Shown: positions 4,984 through 34,780, numbered from the stretch's first letter. The stretch: DNA of 64,000 bases from an uncultured Candidatus Saccharibacteria bacterium (GCA_964450605.1 CAYVEK010000002.1:87681-151680), one strand, 5' to 3'. Made by a program: numbers and translations. Notes: a model not told the origin generated them from the sequence alone.

Positions 4984-4988
4984 AAATT

Positions 4989-5477: not shown

Positions 5478-5543
5478 ATCGTCAATTATAACATATACTT
5501 ATATACATACCGCAATTATTATTAAATATAATCTTTTAAACAT

Positions 5544-6083
5544 ATGAACATACGAACACTTACAGTATTTACACTAGCTTTCGCATTTGCAGCAACACCT
5601 TTGTTAGCTGAAGAGCGTGAGGGTAGACAAGATCGAGGAGGAATGATAGAGCGACGAGATGCTCGAATAGAACGAGTGGACAAAAAAATGGATAAACTAG
5701 AGGACCGAATGGAGAAAGGTGAAAAACGAGGTTTGGGTAAAAATGGAAATGCATCTTCAACAATAGATGCAACATGTGCTAAAGCAGCTATCGATGTTCG
5801 AAGTAGTGCTATATTAACAGCATTTAATACACACAATACAACAATATCTGCATTGATAGCTTCAAGTACTATCGGTGAAAAAGCTGCTTTTGACCTTGCA
5901 ACAAACGGAGAGCGACAGAAAGCATTGCGAGCAGTTCGACAAGCGCTAAAGATGGGACGAATGCAGGCTCGAAAGACTATGATGGAAGCTGAGAAAACAG
6001 CATTCACAACTTTCAAAACTTCAATGAAAGCATGTGGAGCAAACGGTAATGATGTTGAGAAAGGAGAACCTCTAGTTAACTAA
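5544..6083 (+). CDS. Hypothetical secreted protein with a charged, coiled-coil-like N-terminal region
   Basis: 179 aa with a signal peptide (MNIRTLTVFTLAFAFAATPLLA). It is followed by an intrinsic terminator at 6119-6141, which is why I prefer it over the overlapping antisense ORF. Confidence 0.45.
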   Translation: MNIRTLTVFTLAFAFAATPLLAEEREGRQDRGGMIERRDARIERVDKKMDKLEDRMEKGEKRGLGKNGNASSTIDATCAKAAIDVRSSAILTAFNTHNTTISALIASSTIGEKAAFDLATNGERQKALRAVRQALKMGRMQARKTMMEAEKTAFTTFKTSMKACGANGNDVEKGEPLVN

Positions 6084-6118
6084 ATTGATATAGATATCTG
6101 TATAAGATATGAAAATAC

Positions 6119-6141
6119 CACCACCTTAGGTGGTGTTTTTA
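6119..6141 (+). terminator. Rho-independent terminator (caccacc-tta-ggtggtg plus T-run)
   Basis: Perfect 7-bp stem followed by TTTTT. Confidence 0.6.
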
Positions 6142-6161
6142 TTATGTTATACTAATGAGAT

Positions 6162-6839
6162 ATGAAAGTCTGGATGATGATTATATTTGTATTAGTGATT
6201 TTAGGTGTTATTTATGTATATAAACCAGTAAGCCATTTTGGGGCAAAACTACTTATCAAACACGCTGGTGGAAAAAAGATCGCTCTCACTTTTGACGACG
6301 GACCCATACCTGCAACCTCCAAGCTACTCGACATGCTTGACGAAGTTGGGGTTAAAGCTACTTTTTTTGTCATAGGAGAAGAGTTATCTCGTCGCGGAGA
6401 ATTAACAAAAAAAGCATTTGATAAAGGTCACTCCATTGGGAACCATTCATGGGATCACCCTCATATGCTCGGCTGGCGCTCCGAATCTTTTATGAAGGAA
6501 CAGATTGAGAAAACAAATACCGAACTAGCTAAACTAGGAATAAAACCCAAATCTTTTCGATCTCCATTTGGAGAAACATCTTGGAGACTAACATCAATGC
6601 TTGAAAAGCATGGAAGTATGAAATACGTAGGCTGGACAGTGTCGAGCAAAGATTGGAAGCTTGATTACACAGCCGAAAAAATACATAAACTTTTTTCAAA
6701 TATAAAAGAAAATGAGGTTATATTACTTCATGACCGTGCATATGAAAAACCAGAACATCTAGAAGCTTTAAAAGAAGAGATACTTCGCCTTAAAAAAGAA
6801 GGTTTCTCTTTTGTAACTATCGACCAACTTCTTCCTTGA
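6162..6839 (+). CDS. Polysaccharide deacetylase (NodB homology domain, CE4 family)
   Basis: Motifs LTFDDGP and GNHSWDHP are typical of the NodB domain. An N-terminal TM helix is present. Confidence 0.8.
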   Translation: MKVWMMIIFVLVILGVIYVYKPVSHFGAKLLIKHAGGKKIALTFDDGPIPATSKLLDMLDEVGVKATFFVIGEELSRRGELTKKAFDKGHSIGNHSWDHPHMLGWRSESFMKEQIEKTNTELAKLGIKPKSFRSPFGETSWRLTSMLEKHGSMKYVGWTVSSKDWKLDYTAEKIHKLFSNIKENEVILLHDRAYEKPEHLEALKEEILRLKKEGFSFVTIDQLLP

Positions 6840-7530
6840 GTTCAGATAAGTTATCACTTGCATTTCCCTGTCCAAACACTGCAGAACCAACAACTGCAGC
6901 ATCCACACCTGCGGATTTAACATCGTGTATGTTGTCCAAATGTATTCCTCCATCCATTTGTATTGTTATGTTTGGATATTTTTCTTTCAGATCTGCAACA
7001 TGTGGCAACCATCTATCATCAAAAGATACACCTTGCTCCCCCACGTGTTCTATGGACATGCACTGAAAAAGCTTAACAGAACCTGAGTGTAATAGATCTT
7101 CTATACGAGCCTTATCAGTAACCCACTCATCATATGTACACGCGATGCCAACATCAGTCAGGAGAGCTGTAGTATCCTCTATGGCCTTAAGTAAACCAGC
7201 CTGTGTGCCGAATGCTGTCGGATGAAATATAAGAACACTTGCACCAAGGCGTGCATACACTTCTATGTACTCATATGCATCTTTAATCATCAGATCAAAC
7301 TGATAATCAACATCGTCCCATCGTGGCAATCCTATATCTTCAGTTAGAAGCTGATCAACGTGAAAATCTCGTGTTATATCTGCTCCACGAGTTGTGTACG
7401 GCCATGTCTTATGTGGTACATAAATACCATCGCAAATATCTACATGTATAGTTTCTGCTTGAGTAACAGAATTAACATGATCTTCTATAACATTAAATGA
7501 TTCTTCGAGAATCGCAGGAATGATTTTCAT
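6817..7530 (-). CDS. rpe: Ribulose-phosphate 3-epimerase
   Basis: MKIIPAILE...IHVDICDGIYVP...MDGGI...AGVDAAVVGSAVF matches the Rpe family pattern. It overlaps the 3' end of the convergent deacetylase gene. Confidence 0.75.
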   Translation of the reverse strand: MKIIPAILEESFNVIEDHVNSVTQAETIHVDICDGIYVPHKTWPYTTRGADITRDFHVDQLLTEDIGLPRWDDVDYQFDLMIKDAYEYIEVYARLGASVLIFHPTAFGTQAGLLKAIEDTTALLTDVGIACTYDEWVTDKARIEDLLHSGSVKLFQCMSIEHVGEQGVSFDDRWLPHVADLKEKYPNITIQMDGGIHLDNIHDVKSAGVDAAVVGSAVFGQGNASDNLSELKEEVGR

Positions 7531-7533
7531 TTT

Positions 7534-8004
7534 TTATTTATCTATTTTATTAATACGTCGAAGATGTCGCTCATCTTGAGAAAAAGATGTACTGAGCCAT
7601 ATATCAACAAGAGTTGTAAGCTCATCTTCATCTACAAAGCGTGCCCCTATAGATAACACATTTGCATCATTATGCTCTCGACTAAGTACGACTATCTCTT
7701 GAGCCTTTTCACCACCATAGCACACTACCGCTCGAACGTGAGGAAATCGATTTGCAACCATGGCTTCACCTTGACCTGATCCACCAAATATAACCGCCTT
7801 TTCTTCTCCTTTTGAATCAGAAACTGCACGAGCAGCTTTTGCTATATACTCAGGATAATCATCTCCTTCTGTATACACTTCCGCTCCGTGATCTATAACA
7901 AGACAACCTTTTTCAAGTAAAAAAGCTTTAACTTTTTCTTTATATTCAAATCCTGCATGATCTGTAGCGAGATGTATGGTTTTCATATCTTGGTTATAGC
8001 ACAT
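7534..8004 (-). CDS. rpiB: Ribose-5-phosphate isomerase B
   Basis: 156 aa. MKTIHLATDHAGFEYKEKV...CYGGEKA is typical of the RpiB/LacAB family. Confidence 0.85.
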   Translation of the reverse strand: MCYNQDMKTIHLATDHAGFEYKEKVKAFLLEKGCLVIDHGAEVYTEGDDYPEYIAKAARAVSDSKGEEKAVIFGGSGQGEAMVANRFPHVRAVVCYGGEKAQEIVVLSREHNDANVLSIGARFVDEDELTTLVDIWLSTSFSQDERHLRRINKIDK

Positions 8005-8007
8005 TTT

Positions 8008-9060
8008 TTACAAATCTTGCCCACCTGTAACTTTTTCAACTTTTGCTGACAAACCTGTCTCTTTATCAAAACTGTACTCACCTTTAAGTGCAAGAGTTAG
8101 CATATCAAGTCTGTCTTTTAATATCGCCTGACCTTCCGCTTCGTTTTCCGCATCTTTGGCAAAATGCGCAAGCACAGGATCTTGTATAGCTCGAGAATAT
8201 GAATATGTCATAGCAAATGGAAATGGACCAAGCTTCATAAGCTCTGATAGATTCATTGCTGCCTGAGTTGGAGTTTGTCCACCTGATAGAAATACTATAC
8301 CGCCGATATTTTTAGGAACAGTTGAAAGAAGGACATCTGCTGTGTGTTTTGCAACTTCTTCATGTGTAGCTGTTTCAACAGCACTTTTTCCAGAAAGCAC
8401 AAAAGATGTTTTGAGTATAACTCCTGTAATATCAACTTTATATAAAGCTAGTTCACCAAATAGATGCGTGAGTGTATTTTGTAATCGCTCGGCGCATTCA
8501 TATATAGAATGTGTTCCATCATATAACACTTCTGGTTCGATGATAGGTACCAAACCTGCTTGCTGTGCAAGTGATGCATAGAGCGCAAGGTTTCGCATAT
8601 TTGCCTCAACTCCACTGTCAGTAGAAGTCGTTACATCAACAACCGCTCGCCATTTTGTAAATCGTGCACCGAGTTTATAATATTCTTCAAGTCTTTCTTT
8701 TAGACCATCTAATCCTAGGGTTAGTTTTTCTCCTGTAAAGTTTGGCAAATCAACAAGACCTTTATCGACTTTGATACCTGGGACAATACCATGTTCAGTA
8801 CAATACTGTGCAAATGTTTTCCCCTTCTCTATCTCTTGTCTTAGAGTCTCATCATAAAATATAACTCCGCTTATATACTTCGATACATCTGGAGTTCCAA
8901 TAAGGAGTTTTCGGTACGCAAGACGATTCTCCTCTGTCTGTGCTATGCCAAGCGCTTCAAAACGCTTATGAATAGAGTTTGTGCTCTCATCAGCGGCCAA
9001 TAATCCTTTTCCTTCTGCAAATATCTGTTTGATTGTTTCGTGTAGTTTTTCTGTAGTCAT
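8008..9060 (-). CDS. fba: Fructose-bisphosphate aldolase, class I (eukaryote-type)
   Basis: GLLAADESTNSIHKRFEALGIAQTEENRLAYRKLL matches the class I FBA N-terminal signature. The protein is 350 aa. Confidence 0.85.
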   Translation of the reverse strand: MTTEKLHETIKQIFAEGKGLLAADESTNSIHKRFEALGIAQTEENRLAYRKLLIGTPDVSKYISGVIFYDETLRQEIEKGKTFAQYCTEHGIVPGIKVDKGLVDLPNFTGEKLTLGLDGLKERLEEYYKLGARFTKWRAVVDVTTSTDSGVEANMRNLALYASLAQQAGLVPIIEPEVLYDGTHSIYECAERLQNTLTHLFGELALYKVDITGVILKTSFVLSGKSAVETATHEEVAKHTADVLLSTVPKNIGGIVFLSGGQTPTQAAMNLSELMKLGPFPFAMTYSYSRAIQDPVLAHFAKDAENEAEGQAILKDRLDMLTLALKGEYSFDKETGLSAKVEKVTGGQDL

Positions 9061-17258: not shown

Positions 17259-20252
17259 TTATTGATTTATCAGCTTTCTGGTCTTTGGACCAAAATACCC
17301 TGAAGCAGGTTTTATGCTATGTGCTTTTTGATACTCAATCAAGGCATCTTTTGTTAGCTTTCCAAAATAATTAGTACTTTTATCTTGGCCCAATATTTTT
17401 GCTTTAGGTCCACTATTTTCCTTAATTAAAAATTGTTGAAGATCCTTAACGTCTGATCCGACAGAGCCAACCTTTAAATCTCGAACAAAAACTTTTGTAT
17501 TTATTTTTTTAAAAGGTGCACCGTTATTATTTGTTTTTTCTTCGGCAAATAATTGAGGCCATTTTTTCTTCAACTGCTCTGCTTCTGTTTTTTTGCCCAT
17601 TTTATACAGATATTCAACTTGTTGAGCTATACTACTTCCACCCGCACCAGGTCCCACCTGAGCACTCGCGCCAGCAGACAAAGTCTGACCAAAAAGAGAG
17701 AATATAGAGAAGTGTGGAGCGGTACACGTTATAGTATTTGTACTAGTATTTACAGAACAATCGTTGAGTGCTGACCATTCACCATTTGCATAGTGATACA
17801 AACGAAGAGTCGCCTCATCCAAACCTGCAATATCTGCATCTGAATATGTATACGTTATAGTAACAGGCAAAGCAAAAGAATCGAGAATAACATTTGAATT
17901 TATAATAGCCTTAACGTCAAAAACTATATCTCCAACTTTCACGGTTGTACTTGTAGGTTTACCAATAAGTCCAATAACAGGATTTCCAGGTAAAGATTGG
18001 ATCTGTATAATCACATTTGATGATGTCGAGGTGAAGTTTGCCGGAGTAGTAATCATAAACGTTGCTCCACCCTCTGTAAGTTGTGTTGTTGTTGTAGCAC
18101 TTACAGTTACATCTGTTGAAGTTGCTGATGTTTGAACAACTGATGCTTCACAACCTATTGTTTTAAATGTATCGTCAGATGACGTTGCTGTATTTGTATA
18201 CCCATCACGAGATACAATTTTATAGTAATACGTTGAGCAAGGAACTAGATTTGTTAGAGCTATAGAATGAGAAGTAACTCTGGGTGAGGTGTCTGTTTCC
18301 GCTGTACTGCTACTAAATTTAACTACTCCATAGTATACACGACTTGAAGCATTTTCATTCGTACTCCAAGTTATAGACGCTGATGTTGAGGAAGTACTTG
18401 TTGCAGAAACAGATGTTATGACAGGTGCTGTAGTGTCACCCATGGTAAAGTTCCAAGAAGTACTCGCATTTACACCTGCAAAGTACGCATGTGACCCATC
18501 TCTAAAAGCTGTACTTGGAATCATTACATAGTAGCCAACTCCTTCTTGAAAATCATTTACAGGATTAACAACTATAGTGTTTGTACCACTTCCCGTTACC
18601 GTTGAGCTTGCAACATTTATTGTCTCAAACACCGTATTGTCAGCTGTTTTGTAAATCGTAATATCACTTGTACTTGCATATACAGTCGTACTAAACAACA
18701 TCGTTAGATTTGTTGATGTTGCAACGCCGGTCGAGTTGTCTGCTGGAGTTAGAGACGAGATACTTGGTGCATTTGTTGTGCTAATTGATACATTTTTAGC
18801 TATAACAGTTGGCAAGGCTCCAAGAGCACCGTACTCAACAACATATCCAGGCAGTGTTGTTCCTGTACAAGGAAGATCGTTCCATTTTCCAGATCCACCT
18901 GATAAGAATTGACCACAATCTTCATTTGAACCCGCATCATTTGGTTCACCAGTTCCCCAGTTTGCGTAATTACCACCAAAAGTAGATCCTCCACTTGCAC
19001 CACTCCAAAACTGTGTACCTGTCTCAGGCCCTGTCGCCCACTTCCAAGCACCTTCGACAGCAGAATCAGAAGCGCCCATCCAACCGGCATTCGATAAACG
19101 AGCTGCGACGAAATCATTTTCTTGTTGTGAAGTAATGGTTGTTAGGTACCCAGTAGCACCATATTTTGTAAGTGAAGCTGCTGCGGCTTGTGCCCCTTGC
19201 CATGTAAGTGTACTTGATATGTATTCATATAGATGGCCGTTATCTGCAAAAAATACTTCACCTGAAGGTACAAGAGAAACTTCAAGAGTGTCTGACCCTG
19301 TACTTGCTCGAGTATATGTAAGTGTTGAAAGAGCGTTATTAATATCCGTAACCGTTCCGCTAAAATACAATGTTGAACCAGTTGTTCCGCCTGTAAACGT
19401 AAGACCTGTTGTATTTGACATTGCCAATGTTCCACTTGTAACTCGCAACTTCACAGGTGTTGTTGATGCTCCATTTCCGCTTATTTGTACATCAGTTATA
19501 GGCATTGCCACATTTGCAGTACCTGTGACTGTATCTGCACCTACAATAGAAAAGTTTGCAGGAGGTGTGGCAGAATATGTTTGTACTCGAGTAGAGTGTA
19601 CAAAATGAACACCACTGTTATACCACGTTGATAAACCAGAAGATCCACTTCCTTGCAAGGTTGCAGAACTATCCGTTGTATTAAAAGTACCAACAAGACT
19701 ATTGTCAGCAAGATTTCTCACAATGACAGATATAACTGTTGCATTTGTACTTGTTGCAGAAAACTCAATACTATACCCAATAGAATTGTTAAGAGAAAGT
19801 GCCGTTGTTCCAAGTGAGGTTGTAACTCCTCCAACTATTTTATATACAAATATTCCACCACTTCCGATATGTGCAAGATAATGATCATTTGTCCCTGATT
19901 GATATCGCAAAACAAGTCCTAAAAACTGACCAAAGTTTTCTCCCGCAGGAAGAGTTGCTATGATACGCTGGTCCTGTTTATTTTCTGAACTTGGTCGTAA
20001 CAAAAACTTTGTCAAATAATCTGAACTTGCATACGACGATCCTTGCAGTTGATTGTTCGATATATTCCACATACCTCCTGCCGTATCTATCCACCCATTA
20101 CCGGCGCCCGATGTTGAGCCTGGAGTAGAAGACGTTGCAGTATCTGCTCGAGTAAATGAATCATCGACAACTGGATACCATGTCGTTGCGCTAACTGATA
20201 CCGACAATAATGATACTGAAAAAATAAATAAAAATTTTGAAACTTGTTTCAT
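17259..20252 (-). CDS. Large secreted multidomain surface protein: C-type lectin-like domain, Ig-like (Big) and FN3-like domains, C-terminal peptidoglycan-binding domain
   Basis: 997 aa with a signal peptide. The lectin-like region is WQGAQAAAASL...QQENDFVA...EGAWKWATG...ANWGTGEPNDAGSNEDCGQF...GKWNDLPCT. The FN3-like region is SITWSTNENASSRVYYG...CSTYYYKIVSRDGYTN. The C-terminal PG_binding_1-like region is LKVGSVGSDVKDLQQFL...LIEYQKAH. Confidence 0.75.
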   Translation of the reverse strand: MKQVSKFLFIFSVSLLSVSVSATTWYPVVDDSFTRADTATSSTPGSTSGAGNGWIDTAGGMWNISNNQLQGSSYASSDYLTKFLLRPSSENKQDQRIIATLPAGENFGQFLGLVLRYQSGTNDHYLAHIGSGGIFVYKIVGGVTTSLGTTALSLNNSIGYSIEFSATSTNATVISVIVRNLADNSLVGTFNTTDSSATLQGSGSSGLSTWYNSGVHFVHSTRVQTYSATPPANFSIVGADTVTGTANVAMPITDVQISGNGASTTPVKLRVTSGTLAMSNTTGLTFTGGTTGSTLYFSGTVTDINNALSTLTYTRASTGSDTLEVSLVPSGEVFFADNGHLYEYISSTLTWQGAQAAAASLTKYGATGYLTTITSQQENDFVAARLSNAGWMGASDSAVEGAWKWATGPETGTQFWSGASGGSTFGGNYANWGTGEPNDAGSNEDCGQFLSGGSGKWNDLPCTGTTLPGYVVEYGALGALPTVIAKNVSISTTNAPSISSLTPADNSTGVATSTNLTMLFSTTVYASTSDITIYKTADNTVFETINVASSTVTGSGTNTIVVNPVNDFQEGVGYYVMIPSTAFRDGSHAYFAGVNASTSWNFTMGDTTAPVITSVSATSTSSTSASITWSTNENASSRVYYGVVKFSSSTAETDTSPRVTSHSIALTNLVPCSTYYYKIVSRDGYTNTATSSDDTFKTIGCEASVVQTSATSTDVTVSATTTTQLTEGGATFMITTPANFTSTSSNVIIQIQSLPGNPVIGLIGKPTSTTVKVGDIVFDVKAIINSNVILDSFALPVTITYTYSDADIAGLDEATLRLYHYANGEWSALNDCSVNTSTNTITCTAPHFSIFSLFGQTLSAGASAQVGPGAGGSSIAQQVEYLYKMGKKTEAEQLKKKWPQLFAEEKTNNNGAPFKKINTKVFVRDLKVGSVGSDVKDLQQFLIKENSGPKAKILGQDKSTNYFGKLTKDALIEYQKAHSIKPASGYFGPKTRKLINQ

Positions 20253-20281
20253 TATAGAATCAAGTATATCAAAGTATTATT

Positions 20282-20761
20282 TTAAATACACACCTCAACT
20301 GTTTCAATCACAACTGAAACTCTCGGTCTGTCTGCCATATCTACTGCAACCTGTTCGATTTCAGCAACTATATCCATACCTCCTATAACTTTTCCGAAAA
20401 CAGTATGTTTGGTATCTAAAAATAGATTATCTTTTACGTTTATGAAGAACTGGCTACCGTTTGTGTTTGGACCAGAATTTGCCATAGAGATAGTTCCTGC
20501 CAAGTTATGATTCTCTGCATGTATTTCATCTGCAAACTTGTACCCTGGGCCGCCTGTTCCCCAAAAATCAATCTTTTCGTCATCTTTAGTTAACGGATCA
20601 CCACTTTGAATCATAAAACCAGCAATCACTCGATGAAATTTTACACCGTTGTAAAATCCATCTTTTGAAAGTTTGATGAAGTTCGCAACCGTATTTGGTG
20701 CTAGTTTTTGAAATAATTCGAGAGTAATATCGCCACGATTTGTATGTAGAATTGTTTTCAT
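20282..20761 (-). CDS. ppiB: Peptidyl-prolyl cis-trans isomerase, cyclophilin type
   Basis: FHRVIAGFMIQSGDP...NGSQFFI matches cyclophilin. Confidence 0.9.
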   Translation of the reverse strand: MKTILHTNRGDITLELFQKLAPNTVANFIKLSKDGFYNGVKFHRVIAGFMIQSGDPLTKDDEKIDFWGTGGPGYKFADEIHAENHNLAGTISMANSGPNTNGSQFFINVKDNLFLDTKHTVFGKVIGGMDIVAEIEQVAVDMADRPRVSVVIETVEVCI

Positions 20762-20789
20762 GGGATGAGTGTAACATAAAACCTATGTA

Positions 20790-21469: not shown

Positions 21470-21793
21470 TTATATATTCTCTAACGGATACACATCCATT
21501 GCAATCTCATCATATGGGTGCACTTCTTTAATAGCCCTGATAACCTCTTGCAGTTTTTCCCTCGAACAGATTGTTTCTATTCTTTCTTCTATCACCTCTT
21601 CAAACTTTCCAACTTCACCGATATGAGGGTTTGCACCAACTTCAGGTTTAAATCTCCCTATACCTTTTGAAGAAAAAGTACAGTACGTGTAGTTACCTAT
21701 TTTTCCTGCTCCTGCTTTTCCCATAGCTTCTCGAACAATATCAGTGTGAGTTTCTGGGACGAATATGACGATTTTGACGTTAAGTGAGTTCAT
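21470..21793 (-). CDS. Stand-alone YqfO/Nif3-insert-type PII-like domain protein
   Basis: IFVPETHTDIVREAMGKAGAGKIGNYTYCTF...RFKP...HPYDEIAMDVYPLENI closely parallels the PII-like insert of Bacillus YqfO (AYVPEHYADEVKEALFSAGAGHIGQY...AHPYEEVAYDVYPLEN), as I recall that sequence. Confidence 0.6.
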   Translation of the reverse strand: MNSLNVKIVIFVPETHTDIVREAMGKAGAGKIGNYTYCTFSSKGIGRFKPEVGANPHIGEVGKFEEVIEERIETICSREKLQEVIRAIKEVHPYDEIAMDVYPLENI

Positions 21794-21797
21794 ATTA

Positions 21798-22616
21798 TTA
21801 TTTTAATTTCTTAATTGTATTATTAGACTGCAGTGATTTCATTTGAGATATTGCAATTTCATTTAATTTTAATATTCTATCAGATTGAGTCATTCCCATT
21901 TTTATAAACTCAGCATTCAATGTTTCTAGATTTGCAAGACATACAAGCTCATACACATCAGCATAATCACGCATATTTCCTTCTTTATTTTTATTCTTAC
22001 TCTTCCACTCCTGAGCAGTCATTCCGAAAAGTGCCTTATTTAAAATATCAGCCTCGTTTGCATAGATTCCTACCGCATCCTGTTTTGATAATTTATTTGG
22101 TAAAACAATATTTTCTTTAATTGAATCTGTGTGAATTTTATAATTTATTTTTGTCAAAACTCTTTTTGCATCCCATCCAATCGTTAGACGTTCGGCTTCA
22201 TCTATTTTCAACCTTTGAAACTCTTTGATCAGATACAGTTTAAACTCAGCAGAAATCCAAGTGGCAAATTCAAATGCAATGTCTTTATGGGCAAATGTAC
22301 CTCCGCCATTTCCAGACTTAGAGATAATTCCAACGGCACCTGTAGTCTCTATCCACTTCTGAGGTGATAAAGTAAAACTATTGGAACCAGCCTCTTTTTT
22401 AAAGGCGTCGAATTCGACCCCTTTGAAATTTAAATTATTAACCCTTTCCCAAACACCCAAAAACTCTATAGTAGAATAATTTCTCATCCAATTTTTAACA
22501 ACATCTTTTGGCTCATTTGGATTCTTATATCGAGCAATATCAGTAAGGGAAATATAATCATCCTGACCCTGTCTAAATGTGTATATTTGAATACCTTGAG
22601 TGTTTATCTTCTTCAT
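21798..22616 (-). CDS. KilA-N domain protein (phage-derived DNA-binding module) with an antirepressor-like C-terminal region
   Basis: N-terminal ISLTDIARYKNPNEPKDVVKNWMRNYSTIEFLGVWE fits the KilA-N pattern. Confidence 0.65.
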   Translation of the reverse strand: MKKINTQGIQIYTFRQGQDDYISLTDIARYKNPNEPKDVVKNWMRNYSTIEFLGVWERVNNLNFKGVEFDAFKKEAGSNSFTLSPQKWIETTGAVGIISKSGNGGGTFAHKDIAFEFATWISAEFKLYLIKEFQRLKIDEAERLTIGWDAKRVLTKINYKIHTDSIKENIVLPNKLSKQDAVGIYANEADILNKALFGMTAQEWKSKNKNKEGNMRDYADVYELVCLANLETLNAEFIKMGMTQSDRILKLNEIAISQMKSLQSNNTIKKLK

Positions 22617-22648
22617 ATTTGCTCAAAGTGTATCATACTAAAAATCTT

Positions 22649-23122
22649 TTATTTATGTTGTAATGTTTGAACAACAATACGATGTCTATATTTGGCATGT
22701 CTAACAGACTCATCTAAAAATCTAGTGATTCGAACATCACGATTGCCGTCAGAGATAATACGAACATCTGCCACAAAAAATTCATTATTTGCTTTAAAAA
22801 GAAATCTAAAACATGTCCACTCTTCCATGCTTAAGATATAGTCTTTCGCATTATGTATGATAAAACTTTTTATCTGCGGAGTTGTGAGAACTAAATGGTC
22901 TATGTTTTGATCAATACTTTCAAAAATATTTTTATACTCCGCATCCTCTGTTTGTTCATACACATCTACCGTAATATCAGGAGTTGGAGACTCAGGTTTA
23001 TCGCACCCCCAATTTTTAAAATCAGGACTAATATAGTTAAAAATATCTTGGGCAGAAGCGAGGATTTCTGTACCGTCAGTAGAGCCAATCGTTACAGATG
23101 TGTCTAGCTTATTACAAATCAT
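22649..23122 (-). CDS. Orphan hypothetical protein (157 aa); first of three small genes each preceded by the conserved GTTGGAC...GTTAGAAC element
   Basis: ATG lies directly adjacent to repeat copy A. No known domain. Confidence 0.3.
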   Translation of the reverse strand: MICNKLDTSVTIGSTDGTEILASAQDIFNYISPDFKNWGCDKPESPTPDITVDVYEQTEDAEYKNIFESIDQNIDHLVLTTPQIKSFIIHNAKDYILSMEEWTCFRFLFKANNEFFVADVRIISDGNRDVRITRFLDESVRHAKYRHRIVVQTLQHK

Positions 23123-23123
23123 T

Positions 23124-23150
23124 GTTGGACGGATTGATACAAGTTAGAAC
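23124..23150. repeat. att-like conserved element, copy A (GTTGGACGGATTGATACAAGTTAGAAC)
   Basis: Three copies occur at 23124, 23514 and 23901, spaced 390 and 387 bp apart. Each sits just upstream of a minus-strand small gene. Confidence 0.8.
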
Positions 23151-23154
23151 CGTT

Positions 23155-23505
23155 TTAATTAAAATACAAGAACATTCCCATCACCAAAATCAGCTGAATT
23201 CCCACAGTAAACAGTAATCTTTTAAATCCTGTAGACTGAACCAATGAAGCGTGTTGCAAAACACTCACACCGATAGGATCAATCTGGTTTCCTAAATCAG
23301 TAGGCTTTGTTGATGGATCATAAAGATATACTGCCAGCGACAATGTGTACACAAGAATTGCCTGAAGTAATCCGCTAATAATGGTTTGATTTTCCTGATA
23401 TTTGAAAAATACTGTTGATATTAGTGAAAACACTATAGCAGTAATGAATAAAATTGTGAGCGAAACTTTTTTGGATCTATAATACATACATAAATAATAC
23501 CACAA
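23155..23505 (-). CDS. Orphan small membrane protein (3-4 TM helices); annotated start is TTG, and an internal ATG at 23487 is more likely the true start
   Basis: Hydrophobic helices; no known domain. Confidence 0.3.
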   Translation of the reverse strand: MWYYLCMYYRSKKVSLTILFITAIVFSLISTVFFKYQENQTIISGLLQAILVYTLSLAVYLYDPSTKPTDLGNQIDPIGVSVLQHASLVQSTGFKRLLFTVGIQLILVMGMFLYFN

Positions 23506-23513
23506 AACCTCTC

Positions 23514-23540
23514 GTTGGACCGATTACGTGAAGTTAGAAC
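23514..23540. repeat. att-like conserved element, copy B (GTTGGACCGATTACGTGAAGTTAGAAC)
   Basis: Direct repeat of copy A/C. Confidence 0.8.
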
Positions 23541-23561
23541 TGCTTTGATAAAATCAAGCCT

Positions 23562-23861
23562 TTAATTGCCTGAAAAACAGATATACTCATGAGTATTAAT
23601 TGTTAATATAAAATCTTGTATTTGAGAAGAAACACTTGCTAATTCTTCAGAGAACTTGAACGTCTTCAACTCGGATATCAATTGAGGAACTTGTAGTGTA
23701 TTGAAAATTGTATCTCCATAAGGATCAATTCCCCAGAGAGTTTTGAAAGTTTTTTCCTGATCCCTGTCATGTATTTCAGCAAGAAGACGACCGAAATCTA
23801 GGTTTGAATCGGTTATTATTTTCCCATGTTCGTCTTGTAAGAATATTCCTATTGGTTGCAT
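23562..23861 (-). CDS. Orphan small cytosolic protein (99 aa)
   Basis: No known domain. A TGTGAT-N3-ATCACA palindrome lies between repeat C and its ATG. Confidence 0.3.
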   Translation of the reverse strand: MQPIGIFLQDEHGKIITDSNLDFGRLLAEIHDRDQEKTFKTLWGIDPYGDTIFNTLQVPQLISELKTFKFSEELASVSSQIQDFILTINTHEYICFSGN

Positions 23862-23882
23862 ATTGTGATCATATCACACAAT

Positions 23883-23927
23883 TTGTTAACAAAATCACTT
23901 GTTGGACGGATTACGTGAAGTTAGAAC
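23883..23927. repeat. att-like conserved element, copy C, fused to a 22-mer (TTGTTAACAAAATCACTTGTTG) that is identical to the sequence abutting the tRNA-Gln 3' end at 28004-28025
   Basis: Exact 22-nt identity seen in the sequence. Confidence 0.85.
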
Positions 23928-23993
23928 CTCTTTATATCATACTTTGGTGGGTAAATATGCAGTGATGAGGACATGTGAAAAAGTCTAATACCA

Positions 23994-24022
23994 TTGACAT
24001 TTGTATCTATGGATTGTATTAT
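23994..24022 (+). promoter_or_regulatory. Sigma-70-like promoter TTGACA-17-TATTAT upstream of the radical SAM gene
   Basis: Consensus hexamers with 17-bp spacing. An AT-rich promoter abuts a GC-rich ORF. Confidence 0.5.
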
Positions 24023-24058
24023 TGCAGGCAGAAACCAAACCCTCAAACTCCCGCACAA

Positions 24059-25917
24059 TGAACAAAATAATCGCTCCCCTTCTCGTCATCTGTATGATGG
24101 CCTTGAACCTCACCACCAACACATCTTGGGAGGTTAATCTCTCACCAGACTCCGTCTGCAAAATGATCTACAACCACACGGACGTAGACAAACCAATCAC
24201 CCTCAAAGCTCGTTCTGTTGAAGTCGAGATGTACGTAGAGTACGGATGGGGTTGGAGGACAGTTAACGTGCTTGGTGAACCCAAGACCGAAATATCCTTC
24301 AAACCGGGCCCTGCATACATCGTTCCGATCTGTGATATCAGAGTGCTTTCCAATAAGAAACGTCATACCGACTTCGCCTTGCGAGTCTGCGCCGTGGCCG
24401 CTCCGTACTGGATATGCAATAAGAATCCAAATCGTCGCCTCAGCCTCAACAGTCGAACGCCATTCTCGTTGCAGAACGCTCTCCGATGTGTCGCTGAAGC
24501 AGCTCAAAACGAAGAAGGTCCACTCAATGCAAATTGGACTGATCCCGAACTCGTTCACGAATCAATGATGCTCTTCGATGATTACGAAGAGAACGCTGCC
24601 AGCTTTGCAGACCGCCTCCGGCTCATTCAGCCAAACGTCCTGTACATCGGATCAATGACCCTGTCTTTCCCCGGGGCTGTCGAACTTGCCCGCACAGCAA
24701 AGCAAATGTTTGGAGACGGGATTCTCGTAGTGCTTGGCGGCCGACATGTGAACGAAACGTTTTACACGGAGGCAAATCAAATCAAGCATCACAAAGGATC
24801 ACCGCTCCTACTTATGCAGCAAGGAAAGATCGACCAGGTCTTCGACTTGGTCGTCTCAGGCGATGGAGAGCATATATCATTAAAGATCGCCGAGATTGTC
24901 CAACGCGTCGCGACGGACAATCTAATGGTGCGAAACTTTTTTGATCACTCGCTCGAACTTTCCGAGGCTCCAGGAATCTGGCAAGCCGGATGGATCACCG
25001 CTCGGAACGAGATCGAAACGGTGCGTAGTTTAAAACCGCAAGACCGCAGCAGTTTACCAATCCCGGCAGAGGTCTTTGGTATCACCTCGCGCTTCCCTAT
25101 CTTTGGCACGGATTACACCGCGCACGTCTACAGCGATTCAAGTCGAGGCTGCGTGCGAGACTGCAGCTTCTGCAGCGAACGTCGATCAGTGGCCGGAGGT
25201 ATGCAAAACCCTGCGGCCAGTGCTGATCGATTGTTTAGACAGCTTCTTACAGTTCAAGAAATCGGCAGGATCAACGAGTGCTCGGTCAGTGCCTTCGTGG
25301 AGGATTCAATTCTCCTCGCCGGCAGTCCGCAGTACTTATCACGTCTTGCCGATCTTATGGAGAAATCCAAGTTCAACATGAGGTTCGGCGGTCAGTTCAC
25401 CGTAGCTGACCTAACAAACCCCCTCGTGCAACAACAGATTCAAAGACTACAGCAATATGGGTTGTACTATATCTACACAGGTATGGAAACAATCAACCCT
25501 GAAGCTGCGGCAGCCATGAGCAAAAACCGTAAGAAGAATACCCCGTGGTTAACACAAAACACCGAGGCTATAGACTTCGTGAGCAGGATCGGGCTAAAGT
25601 TCGGAGTGTCGGTTCTCTTCGGTATCGGCGAAAGCCAACTCGAGAGACTCCTACACCTGGACACACTCGCAGAGTGGCAGAGAGAATATCAAAACCCCTG
25701 CGTAGTCAGCCTGAATTGGGCGACCGAACACCCACTACTCAACCAGTCGTCACACGACTTTGTTGAGTGGGGCACCAACAGAGACGATCCTCGTCTTAGT
25801 TTGATGCAAGAGGTGTTCGGGGAATCATCCGCAAGGTATTGTTTCCACCCCCTACCCAACACAGAAGAACTCAGTATAATCGCGGAAAAGTTCAGAAACC
25901 TCAACAACCGTACGTAA
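24059..25917 (+). CDS. B12-binding-domain radical SAM enzyme (class B-like); GC-rich gene. The ORF-track start at 24001 is a TTG inside the promoter, so the likely start is ATG 24059 (MNKIIAPLLV...)
   Basis: CxxxCxxC motif in GCVRDCSFCSE. An upstream Rossmann-like B12-binding-type segment (ILVVLGGRHV) is present. About 50% GC by eye versus roughly 36% background. The N-terminal ~150 aa are unassigned and include a hydrophobic leader. Confidence 0.65.
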
Positions 25918-25978
25918 AGTAAGCAACCCTGACTACGTACAAATCCTCGTACCGGAGCAATCTGGTGCGAGGCATTTT

Positions 25979-27043
25979 TTATAATAATTCTTTGCAGGCA
26001 ATTACCAATGTATCAATATCTTTCTTACTATTTGATATTGATAGAGATATTCTAATAAGTGGAATACCGGGTTCTACAATACTATATCCCATATTATCAG
26101 ATACACTGATTTTATATTGATCTAATAATTTTTTAACTACATCTGCAGTTAGATCTCTATCCCCTACTGACAATGTAATAATATGATTTACTTGGTGTGG
26201 CACCTCATAAATATATTTCTCTAGACCATTTAATTTAAATTGCTCTACTAGATACAATCTAAGATCATGTATATGTTTTTCAAAATCAACTTCGTTAAAT
26301 TGCTTTAACATCTCAACCGTTGAAAATAACTCCTTGGTATAACCACCGAGATCAATCTGAGGATACTCACAATCCTCAGATATATATTTATATTTAAATC
26401 CTTTTTCCAAAACACAGAGACCGAGATGTAGTTCAGCACCGATGAACTTCGATGATGTAGCAATGTATGCATCCGTATAATGCAATGGATAGATTTTTGA
26501 TCCACCAATCATCTGCGCTCCATCTGCAATACATACAGCATCTGGATATTTTTCTTTTACATGTTTAAAAATAGACTCAACTGGATATTCTTGTCCGGTT
26601 AATCTCGATACATGTGAATGAATGACAACGACAACAATTCCTTCATCTTCCAGAATCATAGGTCCCTCATCTGGATCGAATACTGTAACTGGATGTGACT
26701 GAAATGTGAATTGATGCTTTGTTGCATAGTTTGGATATGACATATCTTCCAATGACAGCTCTCCTCGTTGCAATATATCTTTAATCCAAAAAACCTCATG
26801 GGCATCTAAGAATATGGATATAGGTTTTCCGTTCTTACTCACCATATCAACAATATATGCAATATGGGTTGAAACATTCTGATCAATATAGACATGTTGG
26901 TCAACGTCAGTCCATAGAACTGACATATCCTGACGCAACCGCGAAACCAACTCACCCGAGTCTTGTTTGATCTCTGTATTAGATAGGAGTTTTGGCTTTC
27001 TACCATCACAGCTGTTCAAATAAATTATCGGCATTAGATTCAT
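25979..27043 (-). CDS. PLP-dependent aminotransferase class V-like (cysteine desulfurase / epimerase fold)
   Basis: VCIADGAQMIGGSKIY...ATSSKFIGAELHLG resembles the class V Lys region. Confidence 0.55.
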   Translation of the reverse strand: MNLMPIIYLNSCDGRKPKLLSNTEIKQDSGELVSRLRQDMSVLWTDVDQHVYIDQNVSTHIAYIVDMVSKNGKPISIFLDAHEVFWIKDILQRGELSLEDMSYPNYATKHQFTFQSHPVTVFDPDEGPMILEDEGIVVVVIHSHVSRLTGQEYPVESIFKHVKEKYPDAVCIADGAQMIGGSKIYPLHYTDAYIATSSKFIGAELHLGLCVLEKGFKYKYISEDCEYPQIDLGGYTKELFSTVEMLKQFNEVDFEKHIHDLRLYLVEQFKLNGLEKYIYEVPHQVNHIITLSVGDRDLTADVVKKLLDQYKISVSDNMGYSIVEPGIPLIRISLSISNSKKDIDTLVIACKELL

Positions 27044-27061
27044 AGTAGCATATCGATATCT

Positions 27062-27982
27062 CTATACCATATATGTCAGAGAATCCTCATAGGCAAGGTC
27101 TTCCCCTTTTAAGATCTTTTGGTATATGTCTTTCACCTTTGAAGTCAGCGGCCCTATCTTACCCTCACCTATCTTCCGCGCATCCACTTCAATAACAGGC
27201 GCTACAAAAGAAGACGTCCCGCAAGCAAAGACCTCATCTGCCACATACAATTCTGTTAAATCAATATTTCGTTCCATCACAGGAATATTCAAACTCTCCG
27301 CAATTTTAAAAATTATTTTTCTATTAATTCCCTCAAGAATATCATTAGATGAGTTTGGAGTAATCAAAGCTCTATTTCGCACAATGAAAATATTTGCCGC
27401 ACTCAACTCGCACACATGTCCGTCATTGTCTAAAAATATACAGTCATCATACCTACTGTCGAGTGCATCTTGTTTACCTAATACTGAGTTCACATACGCT
27501 CCATTAACTTTGGCTCTAGATGGTATTGAATAATCAGGAATACGTCGCCATACACTTGTTTTCAGCCGCACACCATTTTGAGGAATGATCGGATTGGCTT
27601 CATATATGAATATACTTAGCATCGTCTTAAGCCCTCTTGATCGAGTACCTGGAACCAAATCGACCACGTGTACTGTAGCTCTGACAAATGATAACGCAGT
27701 TATATTATTTGCTTTTATAACTTCTGATACAGCTTTTTCAAATCGCGCATAAGCCCACTCTGATTCAAAAGTATCAATGCCAATTATTTTTGATGAGTTG
27801 ATGAGTCGAGTGTAGTGATCTTTGAGATAGAGTGAAGCTATTCCTTTTTTAGTAGAAATAACTGGAAATACAGTGTATACACTGAGGCCATATAGTACAG
27901 CAGAACTCGCCACACTTAGATGAGCGTCTTCGATTGGGATGATTTTGTTTCCAAAATAGGCTTGAGGATGTATGTTGGACAT
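27062..27982 (-). CDS. Class IV aminotransferase (branched-chain amino acid / D-amino acid aminotransferase family)
   Basis: EVFACGTSSFVAPVIEVD and overall length fit fold type IV. Confidence 0.7.
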   Translation of the reverse strand: MSNIHPQAYFGNKIIPIEDAHLSVASSAVLYGLSVYTVFPVISTKKGIASLYLKDHYTRLINSSKIIGIDTFESEWAYARFEKAVSEVIKANNITALSFVRATVHVVDLVPGTRSRGLKTMLSIFIYEANPIIPQNGVRLKTSVWRRIPDYSIPSRAKVNGAYVNSVLGKQDALDSRYDDCIFLDNDGHVCELSAANIFIVRNRALITPNSSNDILEGINRKIIFKIAESLNIPVMERNIDLTELYVADEVFACGTSSFVAPVIEVDARKIGEGKIGPLTSKVKDIYQKILKGEDLAYEDSLTYMV

Positions 27983-28022
27983 TACGATAAATTATAAAGT
28001 TTTTTGTTAACAAAATCACTTG

Positions 28023-28094
28023 TTGCCAGACTTGGAATCGAACCAAGATTAACGGGATCAGAATCCGTTGTCCTACCTTTAGACGATCTGGCAA
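28023..28094 (-). tRNA. tRNA-Gln (anticodon CTG)
   Basis: Hand-folded cloverleaf: acceptor TGCCAGA/TCTGGCA (U1-A72); D arm GTCT-AAAGGTA-GGAC; anticodon loop TTCTGAT with one stem mismatch; T arm CTTGG-TTCGATT-CCAAG. No CCA is encoded. Confidence 0.7.
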
Positions 28095-28133
28095 TAGCCC
28101 CATTATACATATTTATAAAGTTTTTTCCACCAA

Positions 28134-28450
28134 CTCTTGACACCACAAAAAACCAGCGCTAGACTAAATTACGGCACCTTCAAAGGAATCTCTCTGATCT
28201 GTTTTCAGAAGAGCTCTTCCGGTCCTCAGGTGACCAACTTCCAACCAACCTGCCACCATCATGGCCCAACAAAAACCCAAACCACCTCGTCACGTATCTC
28301 ACCAGACCAGAAAAGGAGGGTCCTCCCCCCATTCAGGTCAAGCTCTCGCTGTCATCTGGGAAGGCCGAAAGCCTCCCAAGAAGCGGCACTGAGATCGTTA
28401 TCAACCCAAAACCCCGCCTCGGCATTACGCCGGGCGGGGTCCATTTTTTT
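28134..28450 (+). ncRNA. Candidate structured noncoding RNA or degraded GC-rich insert: TTGACA-17-TAGACT promoter, about 280 nt of ~55-60% GC sequence, then a strong intrinsic terminator (28411-28450)
   Basis: The only ORF (28137..28490) translates to a low-complexity peptide and reads through the terminator. An 11-bp GC-rich hairpin plus T7 closes the element. RNA family not identified. Confidence 0.25.
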
Positions 28451-28473
28451 ATATAACTCAACCAACCCTCCTT

Positions 28474-33326: not shown

Positions 33327-34185
33327 CTGTACGCTCTGCCGCTTGTAGTGTTATAACTGCACGCTCTAGATCAGATGAGACTAGATAGTCTTCTGACTTT
33401 TTAAGGGCTGCCTTGGCTGTATCTACTAACTCTTTTTTATCGTCGGTAACTTTAAATGAATCTAGCTCTGTATATAAAGCTGATATCTTTTTCTTTACAG
33501 TCTCTGGCGTTGAAGATGCTATGTCATCTTCTGGTTCTATAGCTAGTTTAACAACTTCTTTCTTTTCAAGTTTAAGTCGTAGATCTGTTGCAGCAAGAAC
33601 TTCTTCAACAACAACTGGAGAAACTGTATATAGCTGATCAGCCTTTAGAGCAGTTTCTAGATCGAGAACTATCTCTTTTGCTTCGGTTATTTTATTTTCT
33701 TTAACAAGAGCAGCCACTCTGTTTCTAACCTCACGAGATCTGTTTGATAGCTGGGCAACAAGTATATCTTTTTTAGTCTCACTATCTGTAACAGCTTTTA
33801 GTGCATATATCTCTCGCTGAGCTTTGGATAGAGACATCTTTGCTTGAATACTTGATTCTGAACTTGCAACCTCTCCCGCCACTTGAGAAAAGTTTGTCCA
33901 GAATACATGTGAATAGTTTACAAAAATACCGAGAAGCACTATCGGCAATACATAAAACGCATATTGTAGTTTTGTTTTAAACAATATGTCGAAAGGATTC
34001 TGAATATTTACAAATGGAGATTTGACATTGTGCTTATATGCACCTGATTCTATATCTTGTGTGATACGAGCAAAGAGAGAGTTTTTTTCAGAAACAGACA
34101 AAGACGCAGACTTTTCAAGTCGTCGAGATACAGGATTTTTTAGATCCTTCAACATATTCTCAATGTTTGAATTATGCTTTGTCAT
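33295..34185 (-). CDS. Putative anti-sigma factor (single-pass membrane protein), translationally coupled to the upstream ECF sigma factor
   Basis: 14-bp overlap with the sigma gene; TM helix near residues 85-105; coiled-coil extracytoplasmic part. Confidence 0.35.
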   Translation of the reverse strand: MTKHNSNIENMLKDLKNPVSRRLEKSASLSVSEKNSLFARITQDIESGAYKHNVKSPFVNIQNPFDILFKTKLQYAFYVLPIVLLGIFVNYSHVFWTNFSQVAGEVASSESSIQAKMSLSKAQREIYALKAVTDSETKKDILVAQLSNRSREVRNRVAALVKENKITEAKEIVLDLETALKADQLYTVSPVVVEEVLAATDLRLKLEKKEVVKLAIEPEDDIASSTPETVKKKISALYTELDSFKVTDDKKELVDTAKAALKKSEDYLVSSDLERAVITLQAAERTVAELRVSLVQ

Positions 34186-34780
34186 ATTTTTTCTTTAGAG
34201 TTTCAATAATACGATGAATCTGTACTGAGATAGTGTTTTCACGTTCACCAAGTGCTTGAGCTATATCAGATACGGACATATCTTCGATATATCTCATATA
34301 CAATAGCTCCTGCTGTTTTGGTTTAAGTTCTTTGATCTTGCCCAAAAGATGTTTGTGATCTAAACCTACCTCTACTGCCTCAAAGGCCTCATCATCATAA
34401 TCTATCTCGAAACCTTCATCGATAAGTGCGTCTAGTGAATGGTTTTTCTTTGATCGATAATGATCTATGATGGCGTTTCGAACAGATCTGAAAAGGAAAG
34501 CTCTGTGATTTAACCCTTGAGAGTGCTCAGACTCTGAGTCTCTCACCTTTTTAAGGTGACCAAAATAGTTCACAAACACATCTTGAACAACGTCAGTTGC
34601 TTTATCTCTGTCAGTAAGACGGAAAAAAGCAAACTTTATCAACGCGTCAACATGTTCTCTGTACAATTGTTCAAAGTACTGATAAAACTCCGTTTCTGAA
34701 ATAGATCGTATATCGTGAGCTGTTGTCACCTGTGTGTGCGAGTCTGACATATGCTTTTGTATATACTGATCGTCCTTCAT
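34172..34780 (-). CDS. ECF-type sigma-70 family RNA polymerase sigma factor
   Basis: Region 2 (DVVQDVFVNYF) and region 4 helix-turn-helix (MSVSDIAQALGERENTISVQIHR). Confidence 0.75.
   Translation of the reverse strand: MKDDQYIQKHMSDSHTQVTTAHDIRSISETEFYQYFEQLYREHVDALIKFAFFRLTDRDKATDVVQDVFVNYFGHLKKVRDSESEHSQGLNHRAFLFRSVRNAIIDHYRSKKNHSLDALIDEGFEIDYDDEAFEAVEVGLDHKHLLGKIKELKPKQQELLYMRYIEDMSVSDIAQALGERENTISVQIHRIIETLKKKYDKA

Follow-up and report, generated by a model that had tools for sequence, protein, structure and literature searches.

A candidate integron-like array of small gene cassettes anchored at a tRNA-Gln gene in a Candidatus Saccharibacteria bacterium

Bacteria of the Candidate Phyla Radiation (CPR) have genomes of about 1 Mb with few recognised mobile elements, and their acquisition of accessory genes is poorly understood. 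Here we analyse 64,000 nt of DNA from an uncultured Candidatus Saccharibacteria bacterium (GCA_964450605.1, CAYVEK010000002.1:87681-151680; this whole stretch is called the window below), in which three gene units, each ending in a 28-nt element, lie one behind another between a tRNA-Gln gene and the genes p157 and KilA-N. The window, chromosomal DNA of a CPR/Patescibacteria-type bacterium, has a low GC content of ~37%, and among its genes are those for FtsA/FtsZ, LeuRS, a release factor, FtsE/FtsX and TrmD. The genes of the array region lie on the minus strand and are therefore described gene-wise, from 28093 down to 21798. The features are as follows, where 'context' is a 32-nt sequence found in front of the element where a multi-gene unit ends, and small open reading frames (ORFs) are named by the length of their product.

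28022-28093, minus strand: tRNA-Gln(CUG), intact (ARAGORN; Rfam, 57 bits), 3' end ...TCTGGCAAC
28003-28025, minus strand: first copy of a 23-nt repeat, made up of the CAAC of the tRNA and the 19-nt leader AAGTGATTTTGTTAACAAA of the aminotransferase unit
23901-28021, minus strand: unit 1, 4,121 nt, with two aminotransferase genes, a B12/radical-SAM gene, the 32-nt context and element C
27062-27982, minus strand: class IV aminotransferase (Pfam)
25979-27043, minus strand: class V-like aminotransferase (Pfam)
24061-25917, plus strand: B12-binding radical-SAM gene (NCBIfam TIGR04434, 400 bits; GC 50%)
23929-23960, minus strand: 32-nt context, gene strand GCATATTTACCCACCAAAGTATGATATAAAGA, preceding element C
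23901-23928, minus strand: element C, gene strand GGTTCTAACTTCACGTAATCCGTCCAAC, identical in loci L006 and L094
23882-23904, minus strand: second copy of the 23-nt repeat, made up of the CAAC of element C and the p99 leader
23514-23900, minus strand: unit 2, the p99 cassette, 387 nt, with an extended -10 box TGATATGAT (23868-23876), ORF 23562-23861 and element B
23514-23541, minus strand: element B, ending the p99 cassette
23124-23513, minus strand: unit 3, the p110 cassette, 390 nt, with an extended -10 box TGGTATTAT (23494-23502), ORF 23155-23487 and element A
23124-23151, minus strand: element A, ending the p110 cassette
22649-23122, minus strand: p157 ORF, its start codon directly after the CAAC of element A
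21798-22616, minus strand: KilA-N gene, 272 aa, a PADLOC candidate defence gene (PDC-S22) heading a KilA-N/YqfO/cupin block

On the gene strand the element reads GGTTCTAAC-N7-AATCCGTCCAAC, and its three copies begin on the plus strand at 23124, 23514 and 23901. A preliminary description of this DNA had reported them as a motif of about 27 bp; they are real, with none expected in dinucleotide shuffles, and alignment with the copies of related loci gives a conserved unit of 28 nt (23124-23151, 23514-23541 and 23901-23928) with an invariant CAAC at its gene-strand end. Copies B and C differ at one position of 27, and copy A at five. A repeat search returned a 45-nt family with spacings of 390 and 387, in which the 'TTTTGTG' part is promoter portion and stands apart from the 28-nt element. 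All window copies share the orientation of the genes, each between two minus-strand genes. Among 16 aligned copies from six loci, the length is 27-29 nt and the end is CAAC, one decayed copy ending in CAAAC; the composition is C-rich and G-poor. A hidden Markov model of the element found three copies only in the 64-kb window and zero in ~1.1 Mb of unrelated loci. The exact pattern had no match in 185,579 GTDB species genomes or in IMG/VR, where looser scans gave chance-level word matches only, without extended similarity, and a pattern scan of JGI metagenomes gave one true relative (L006) and five chance matches. A general promoter or ribosome-binding word was ruled out as the nature of the element, as there are no further window copies and the promoter consensus lies to the right of CAAC. 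A structured RNA was ruled out by Rfam: no family reached the gathering score in the window, and for 22600-24100 there was none even at E<=1. An extracytoplasmic function-type promoter, read by the sigma factor encoded at 34172-34780, was rejected by inspection, since the AAC-to-CGTC spacing is 11 nt and not 16-17.

The near-even spacing of the copies, 390 and 387 nt, is correct as first reported, although it does not carry the significance given to it, reflecting just two cassettes of similar size. It is also what could be expected if a unit of ~390 bp had been duplicated in tandem and had then diverged, or if the arrangement were an artefact of assembly. The 157-, 116/110- and 99-aa proteins are mutually unrelated, and in blastp and blastn searches the three units share the element only; tandem gene duplication was rejected, as the units are not homologous along their length. 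The window arrangement was assembled independently in the NCBI contig and two Logan runs (those of L090 and L091 also come from two runs), and the repeat is shorter than the assembly k-mers. We regard duplication or artefact as barely credible.

The window copies begin 3-21 nt past the stop codon of the upstream gene, copy C instead following the 32-nt context; across most cassettes the element starts 0-3 nt past the stop codon, and ~20 nt past it in some. The motif had first been seen as an upstream element of different small orphan genes. The three proteins are indeed unrelated, but the element most likely forms the 3' end of the upstream cassette and is not part of the gene that it precedes. 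To the right of CAAC lies the extended -10 consensus TGnTAnnMT, which was found within 60 nt upstream of 23 of the 66 window genes (background, 0.046 per 60 nt), the boxes mostly ending 6-12 nt before the start codon (examples are 23494-23502, 23868-23876 and 20767-20775). By consensus matching only, the leaders of p99, p110, p118, p129 and Barstar carry this host consensus 6-7 nt before the start codon. TGnTAnnMT is thus predicted to be the ordinary leaderless-type promoter of the organism, which seems to use leaderless or near-leaderless transcription as a rule. Since the promoter to the right of CAAC is of the host type, it is separable from the recombination element.

The intact tRNA-Gln gene heads arrays in the related loci L092 and L094 as well as in the window, and the insertion point is its last 4 nt, CAAC; its 3' end is the anchor of the array, equivalent to attB or attI. 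The exact repeat between 23882-23904 and 28003-28025 (0.01 expected by chance) had been described as a 22-mer abutting the tRNA. It stands as an exact repeat, but it is 23 nt long and overlaps the last 4 nt of tRNA-Gln. It is the identity segment that flanks the 4.1-kb unit, and would be the expected leftover of recombination between the tRNA flank and a unit whose leader begins like that of p99, a leader that also precedes Barstar in L090. A proposed fourth, partial copy of the motif at 27974, GTTGGACATTACG, is present in the DNA but represents the first codons of the aminotransferase gene (ATG TCC AAC); the L094 orthologue reads ATG TCC ACC, and the match is due to chance.

The comparison set comprised five related loci on metagenomic contigs (L006, L090, L091, L092 and L094). 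With p110, YqfO and the 416-aa protein encoded next to the tRNA as queries, protein searches led to L090/L091, L092 and L094, and to a further locus, L093, while L006 came from the exact element-pattern scan of JGI metagenomes. A synteny search based on KilA-N covered >590 species and gave no shared flanks. One based on YqfO, a protein that is 80-94% identical across CPR and therefore mostly uninformative in this respect, returned unrelated loci (L095-L108), L094 being the useful one. The gene orders are given below, with a double slash for a CAAC end and with AT for aminotransferase, rSAM for radical-SAM and ctx for the context.

Window: FtsX, 416aa, tRNA-Gln // AT-IV, AT-V, rSAM, ctx // p99 // p110 // p157, KilA-N, YqfO, cupin
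L092: FtsX, 414aa, tRNA-Gln // p110 // p157, KilA-N, YqfO
L094: CTP synthase, DsbB, tRNA-Gln // AT-IV, AT-V, rSAM, ctx // DUF6602 // DUF1653 // p129 // KilA-N, YqfO, cupin
L090/L091: ...156aa // Barstar, 128aa // DUF6176 // KilA-N (pseudogene), YqfO, cupin, ctx // p110 // p118 // p129...
L006: ...YqfO/cupin remnant, ctx // p110 // p118 // hydrolase // KilA-N...

It can be seen that the relatives vary and do so by whole units. In the window, the 4.1-kb aminotransferase/radical-SAM unit and the 387-nt p99 cassette separate tRNA-Gln from the p110 cassette, the leader of which follows element B (...AATCGGTCCAAC joined to GAGAGGTTTTGTGG...). In L092 the tRNA-Gln reads ...GGTTCGATTCCAAGTCTGGCAAC joined to AAGAGGTTTTGTGGTATTATTTATG, so that the p110 leader is attached straight to the tRNA 3' end (TCTGGCAAC). 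Because the L092 tRNA is joined to the very leader that follows element B in the window, the window holds 4.5 kb extra with CAAC on both sides: L092 is without window 23514-28021, with clean ends at the core, and the additional 4,508 nt are two units, each starting with AAGTGATTTTGTTAACAAA and each ending in an element. Unit 1, missing from L092, is present in L094 at 88.7% identity, and the homology between window and L094 begins 24 nt before the tRNA and ends 3 nt beyond the CAAC of element C. Past this point the window has p99 and L094 has DUF6602; the p99 cassette is missing from L092, L094, L090 and L006.

The remaining loci show the same cassettes among other neighbours. The p110 cassette stands after tRNA-Gln in L092, after p99 in the window and after cupin and context in L090, L091 and L006, and is followed by p157 or p118. 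Two types of element were distinguished, type 1 being GGTTCTAACTTCACGTAATCCGTCCAAC and type 2 GGTTCCAATCTCATACCACACTGGCAAC. Both occur in front of the p129 cassette, type 1 in L091 and type 2 in L094; the p129 leader is identical in the two loci. Different cassettes come before the KilA-N block in L090, L094 and L006, and the 32-nt context is kept before the element in the window, L094, L006, L090 and L091 behind differing genes (radical-SAM or cupin). The array also reaches farther than first delimited, through p157 to the KilA-N block. These comparisons largely support the earlier proposal of a tRNA-Gln-anchored, cassette-like array formed by repeated site-specific recombination at a GTTG/CAAC core, its recombinase being lost or distant.

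Three kinds of locus pair are informative about the position of the joins: tRNA against the element before p110, type 1 against type 2 before p129, and different cassettes before KilA-N. In these pairs BLAST placed the breaks at -3 to +3 nt relative to CAAC, the homology starting 2-3 nt inside CAAC, and the identity at the joins is 4-7 nt. This is too little for homologous recombination, which argues for site-specific recombination. The same joins bear on the idea that the element is an expression signal (an operator, an insulator or a site of factor-dependent termination or processing), gene content having changed by ordinary insertions and deletions or by homologous recombination between short repeats; recombination of the latter kind has reportedly been proposed for the promoter/stem-loop cassettes of T4-type phages. 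Such a signal would suit an element that is always found, in a single orientation, after a stop codon and ahead of the next promoter, that is C-rich, G-poor and unstructured, and that occurs where no hairpin terminators were found between the array genes. It would not account for the tRNA-Gln 3' end taking the place of the element before p110 with only CAAC in common, for the interchange of type-1 and type-2 elements before one leader, or for the short identity at the joins. Neither was the element found at the other ~60 window genes, and it has no Rfam match even at E<=1. We therefore consider an expression signal quite improbable.

The element resembles the T-loop-to-acceptor end of tRNA-Gln: the shuffles reaching the observed score numbered 0-4 of 5000 for type 2 and 61-115 of 5000 for type 1, and type-2 elements have GGTTC...CTGGCAAC in common with the tRNA 3' end. 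This likeness would be expected if the elements were fossil scars, that is, displaced 3' fragments of tRNA-Gln left by several tRNA-targeting integrative elements whose integrases and most other genes have been deleted, with cassettes that never moved singly and nothing now active. Several facts would fit such scars. The scan of 40 window ORFs showed no integrase nearby; accretion next to tRNA genes, with partial tRNAs scattered about, is well documented (PMC4383910; 10.1101/2020.12.28.424599); and in L093, a more distant relative, a serine-recombinase island lies 1.3 kb from the corresponding tRNA. On the other side, the elements are 5 nt longer than the matching 23-nt tRNA segment and form a conserved family in their own right. 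Between the window and L006, whose shared genes are ~76-78% identical, copy C agrees at 27/27 positions, and it is identical too in L094; given this identity alongside genes that are 76-89% identical, the element is conserved and not decaying, contrary to its first description as a set of 'degenerate' att-like copies. The identity of copy C would imply selection on the element or recent spread. Furthermore, elements within a genome are near-identical, the modules are compact (promoter, ORF and element) with no pseudogene debris, and one and the same cassette stands behind differing neighbours with breaks at CAAC. Fossil scars are in our view an unlikely explanation.

The layout of the array invites comparison with integrons, in particular sedentary chromosomal integrons and clusters of attC sites lacking an integrase (CALINs). 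As in these, the cassettes are co-oriented, compact and mostly single-ORF, with a repeated site abutting the stop codons and one fixed insertion point heading the array; the sites are near-identical within a genome, the content differs from one close relative to another, the boundaries falling at the recombination site, and the cargo is rich in orphan and defence/immunity-type genes. The heptamer GTTGGAC fits the core GTTRRRY, as had been pointed out, and its complement GTCCAAC fits RYYYAAC. However, the array head is a tRNA 3' end and not attI/Pc, and the site is 28 nt long and unstructured, whereas attC is folded and spans 57-141 nt. As single-stranded DNA the element folds no better than shuffles (z -0.9 to +0.9 for both strands of copies A, B and C; z +0.5 for the gene strand of one L090 copy), and its two boxes are direct repeats, not inverted. 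The literal fit of the core and the missing attC hairpin thus agree with the preliminary description, but the site is not an integron attC either by folding or by anatomy. By consensus matching, the cassettes carry predicted promoters of their own, unlike promoterless cassettes expressed from Pc, and no IntI was found in the window ORFs scanned. A degenerate integron or CALIN, to which the co-oriented small, mostly orphan genes and the repeated site would otherwise point, is therefore very improbable.

No recombinase Pfam domain was found in 40 window ORFs, a scan that included all ORFs of at least 180 aa and bears out the earlier remark that the window holds no integrase. This matters for the comparison with islands that target tRNA genes, as in the Islander model (PMC4383910), the tycheposon islands of Prochlorococcus (10.1101/2020.12.28.424599) and the accretion of streptococcal integrative and conjugative and cis-mobilisable elements (PMC5704250). 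The array resembles these in its intact proximal tRNA at one end, direct repeats, units stacked at the tRNA with most variability near it, and att-like sequences that resemble the 3' part of the tRNA; integrase-less units would need a recombinase in trans. In contrast to them, its units are as small as 387-390 nt with one ORF, its repeat shares just 4 nt with the tRNA, the 28-nt element is conserved in its own right and is probably not a displaced tRNA fragment, and the integrase gene inside the island, which belongs to the Islander definition, has no counterpart or remnant in any array locus seen.

Two further systems were compared. The rAID-1 arrays of Bacteroidales, which are acquired horizontally, line up small genes in one direction, some of them orphan immunity genes, and the repetitive sequences between the genes are 'reminiscent of integrons' (Ross et al. 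2019, 10.1101/471110). At their 5' end the arrays have an adjacent XerD-like recombinase with >44% identity to BF9343_RS08045, followed by two or more genes in the same direction (10.1101/471110). The window array likewise has repeats and co-oriented small genes, but it has a tRNA anchor, a CPR host and no adjacent recombinase that could be found, and rAID-1 is restricted to Bacteroidales. Since the array departs from the defining features of integrons, tRNA islands and rAID-1, we regard it as a variant and not a member of these.

Xer-dependent modules, such as integrative mobile elements exploiting Xer at dif and the pdif modules of Acinetobacter plasmids, are small and integrase-less, have ~28-nt sites and use the host recombinase. 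Small modules bounded by ~28-nt sites are also what the array has. Unlike these modules, however, the array locus shows no switch in GC skew (the cumulative skew runs monotonically through it), the arms of an 11-6-11 dyad match by inspection at only 3/11 (type 1) or 7/11 (type 2) positions, and the sites are all direct repeats, whereas pdif sites alternate in orientation.

Taking these comparisons together with the joins at CAAC, we think it probable that a tRNA-anchored, integron-like cassette array extends from tRNA-Gln to the KilA-N block and is served by a trans-acting site-specific recombinase. Small cassettes have a short leader with a predicted extended -10 promoter, one ORF and a 28-nt element ending in CAAC; the larger units have three genes and the 32-nt context before the element. 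A recombinase encoded outside the window would act at the CAAC core. Recombination between an element and the tRNA-Gln 3' end (...CTGGCAAC) would insert units next to the tRNA, and recombination between two elements would excise or replace internal cassettes. The logic would be that of an integron, with the tRNA end in the role of attI and the element in that of attC, although the sites would be short and double-stranded rather than folded single strands, and the cassettes would bring their own promoters. We infer the recombinase, its class, the direction of the events and any present activity; a tyrosine recombinase is plausible and would be the default guess for a target at a tRNA 3' end. 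In the comparison of window and L092, nucleotide identity is 89-95% for the array genes and 76-84% for the flanking FtsX, 416-aa and glyoxalase genes, which suggests lateral exchange of array segments.

Several observations weigh against this proposal. There are only five related loci, all on metagenomic contigs, some of them short, and no recombinase was found on these contigs or in the window ORFs scanned. The crossover is placed from homology breaks, the position of which is uninformative where two loci carry similar elements, and there are no clear inverted half-sites around CAAC. Duplication of the KilA-N block with differential loss could explain part of the change in gene order. Neighbouring elements in one genome are near-identical (B and C; L094_3 and L094_4), which needs gene conversion or common origin. 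The element after p110 is of type 2 in L006 and of type 1 otherwise, so that elements are not strictly tied to the cassette upstream of them. Finally, the test window for tRNA-likeness was picked post hoc from the alignment, and a looser version was not significant.

The KilA-N protein matches PADLOC PDC-S22 over its full length (E 3e-126), and the KilA-N/YqfO/cupin block is bounded by CAAC-ended elements in L090, L094 and L006. Close KilA-N homologues (56-82% amino acid identity) occur in >590 GTDB species of many bacterial phyla and archaea without shared flanks, and this single gene is therefore extremely mobile. KilA-N was also considered as the recombinase and set aside: there is no supporting evidence, the KilA-N genes of other phyla are without the element, and no PDB homologue was found. 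Homology of the block with L094 and L090 begins at window 22667, within the end of p157, and the p157 3' end (~22665-22669, gene strand CAAAC) may, tentatively, cover a decayed junction with the KilA-N leader. As for the small genes, p110 encodes a small membrane protein (116 aa if started at an upstream TTG) and p99 belongs to an unnamed family of ~100 aa whose profile has no Pfam or PDB match. No annotation was obtained for p99, p110 or p157, and single-sequence AlphaFold2 models were too poor for fold searches (pLDDT 32 for p157 and 53 for p99). The DUF6602 protein of L094 matches NucC-like and PD-DExK nuclease models, and Barstar in L090 is the only recognisable immunity gene. A cargo of this kind, with PDC-S22, a NucC-like nuclease, Barstar and orphan small proteins, is typical of mobile cassette arrays.

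The following observations concern the genes and sites of the array and their surroundings. The radical-SAM gene has a GC content of 50% against ~36% around it, lies on the strand opposite to the array genes and has a near-consensus sigma-70 promoter (TTGACA-17-TATTAT) and a hairpin terminator of its own (flanks 23994-24022 and 25945-25972); it looks foreign, nested in the 4.1-kb unit next to the two aminotransferase genes. The context-type sites of L090/L091 have an extra insert of ~20 nt, GGGAACACTTATGCAAGG, just after GGTTCTAA (L090 3713-3738 and 1384-1406), which creates a small GTTC...GAAC hairpin. The YqfO-family protein (107 aa, 21470-21793, minus strand) is 80-94% identical in >1,500 protein clusters from diverse CPR lineages, and in another lineage (L097-L104) a large serine recombinase lies directly upstream of YqfO, where KilA-N sits in the window. 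Between cupin and glyoxalase, 17259-20761 (minus strand) encodes a peptidyl-prolyl isomerase and a 997-aa secreted protein with C-type lectin, Big_5 and peptidoglycan-binding domains. This stretch, missing at that position in L092 and L094, is a further and unrelated insertion or deletion of 3.5 kb, and neither of its ends carries the element.

Other observations were made around the tRNA gene. Homology with L094 upstream of tRNA-Gln spans only 24 nt (L094 3061-3085, window 28094-28117); there L094 has CTP synthase and DsbB, and FtsX and the 416-aa gene occupy this place in the window, L092 and L093. As homology starts 24 nt before the tRNA, the L094 tRNA and array lie in a different chromosomal context. 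In L093, where the 416-aa neighbour is 59% identical, the tRNA-Gln 3' flank differs and has no element, and a large serine recombinase and a ParB/N6_N4-methyltransferase gene lie at 4813-8034, 1.3 kb from tRNA-Gln, so that this tRNA is a hotspot for another kind of element. The GC-rich spacer between the 416-aa gene and tRNA-Gln (28100-28470) has no Rfam match, carries a sigma-70-like site (TTGACA-17-TAGACT, 28137-28165, plus strand) and a possible very basic ORF of 43 aa (28261-28392, plus strand), and has a similar counterpart in L093 that is likewise GC-rich and contains a small basic ORF. Two independent Logan assemblies with identical sequence, from SRR11567520 and SRR11567528 (L001-L003; position 1 is window 28049) both end inside tRNA-Gln, consistent with a graph branch from strain variants or from genomes that share the 3' half of the tRNA.

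We tentatively raise the possibility, which we hold with less than even confidence, that the array represents a previously undescribed form of gene capture in CPR/Patescibacteria, in which promoter-bearing single-gene cassettes end in an unstructured, double-stranded site of 28 nt that mimics the tRNA-Gln 3' end, and a dedicated recombinase, whose gene lies in another part of the genome or on a visiting element, inserts them at that tRNA and reshuffles them. Such a system would be an integron in function, but its sites and its anchor would differ, and so probably would its enzyme. Should there be a dedicated enzyme, it would form a new recombinase/site pair (a ~28-nt site with a 4-nt core at a tRNA end) and a possible tool. 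The array would also show that integron-like gene shuffling at the level of populations can exist without attC hairpins, and for want of these hairpins, tools of the IntegronFinder type would miss such arrays. For CPR bacteria, a cassette array at a tRNA gene, carrying candidate defence/immunity genes and a three-gene metabolic unit that are reshuffled among close relatives, would provide a concrete and testable route for the acquisition of accessory genes.

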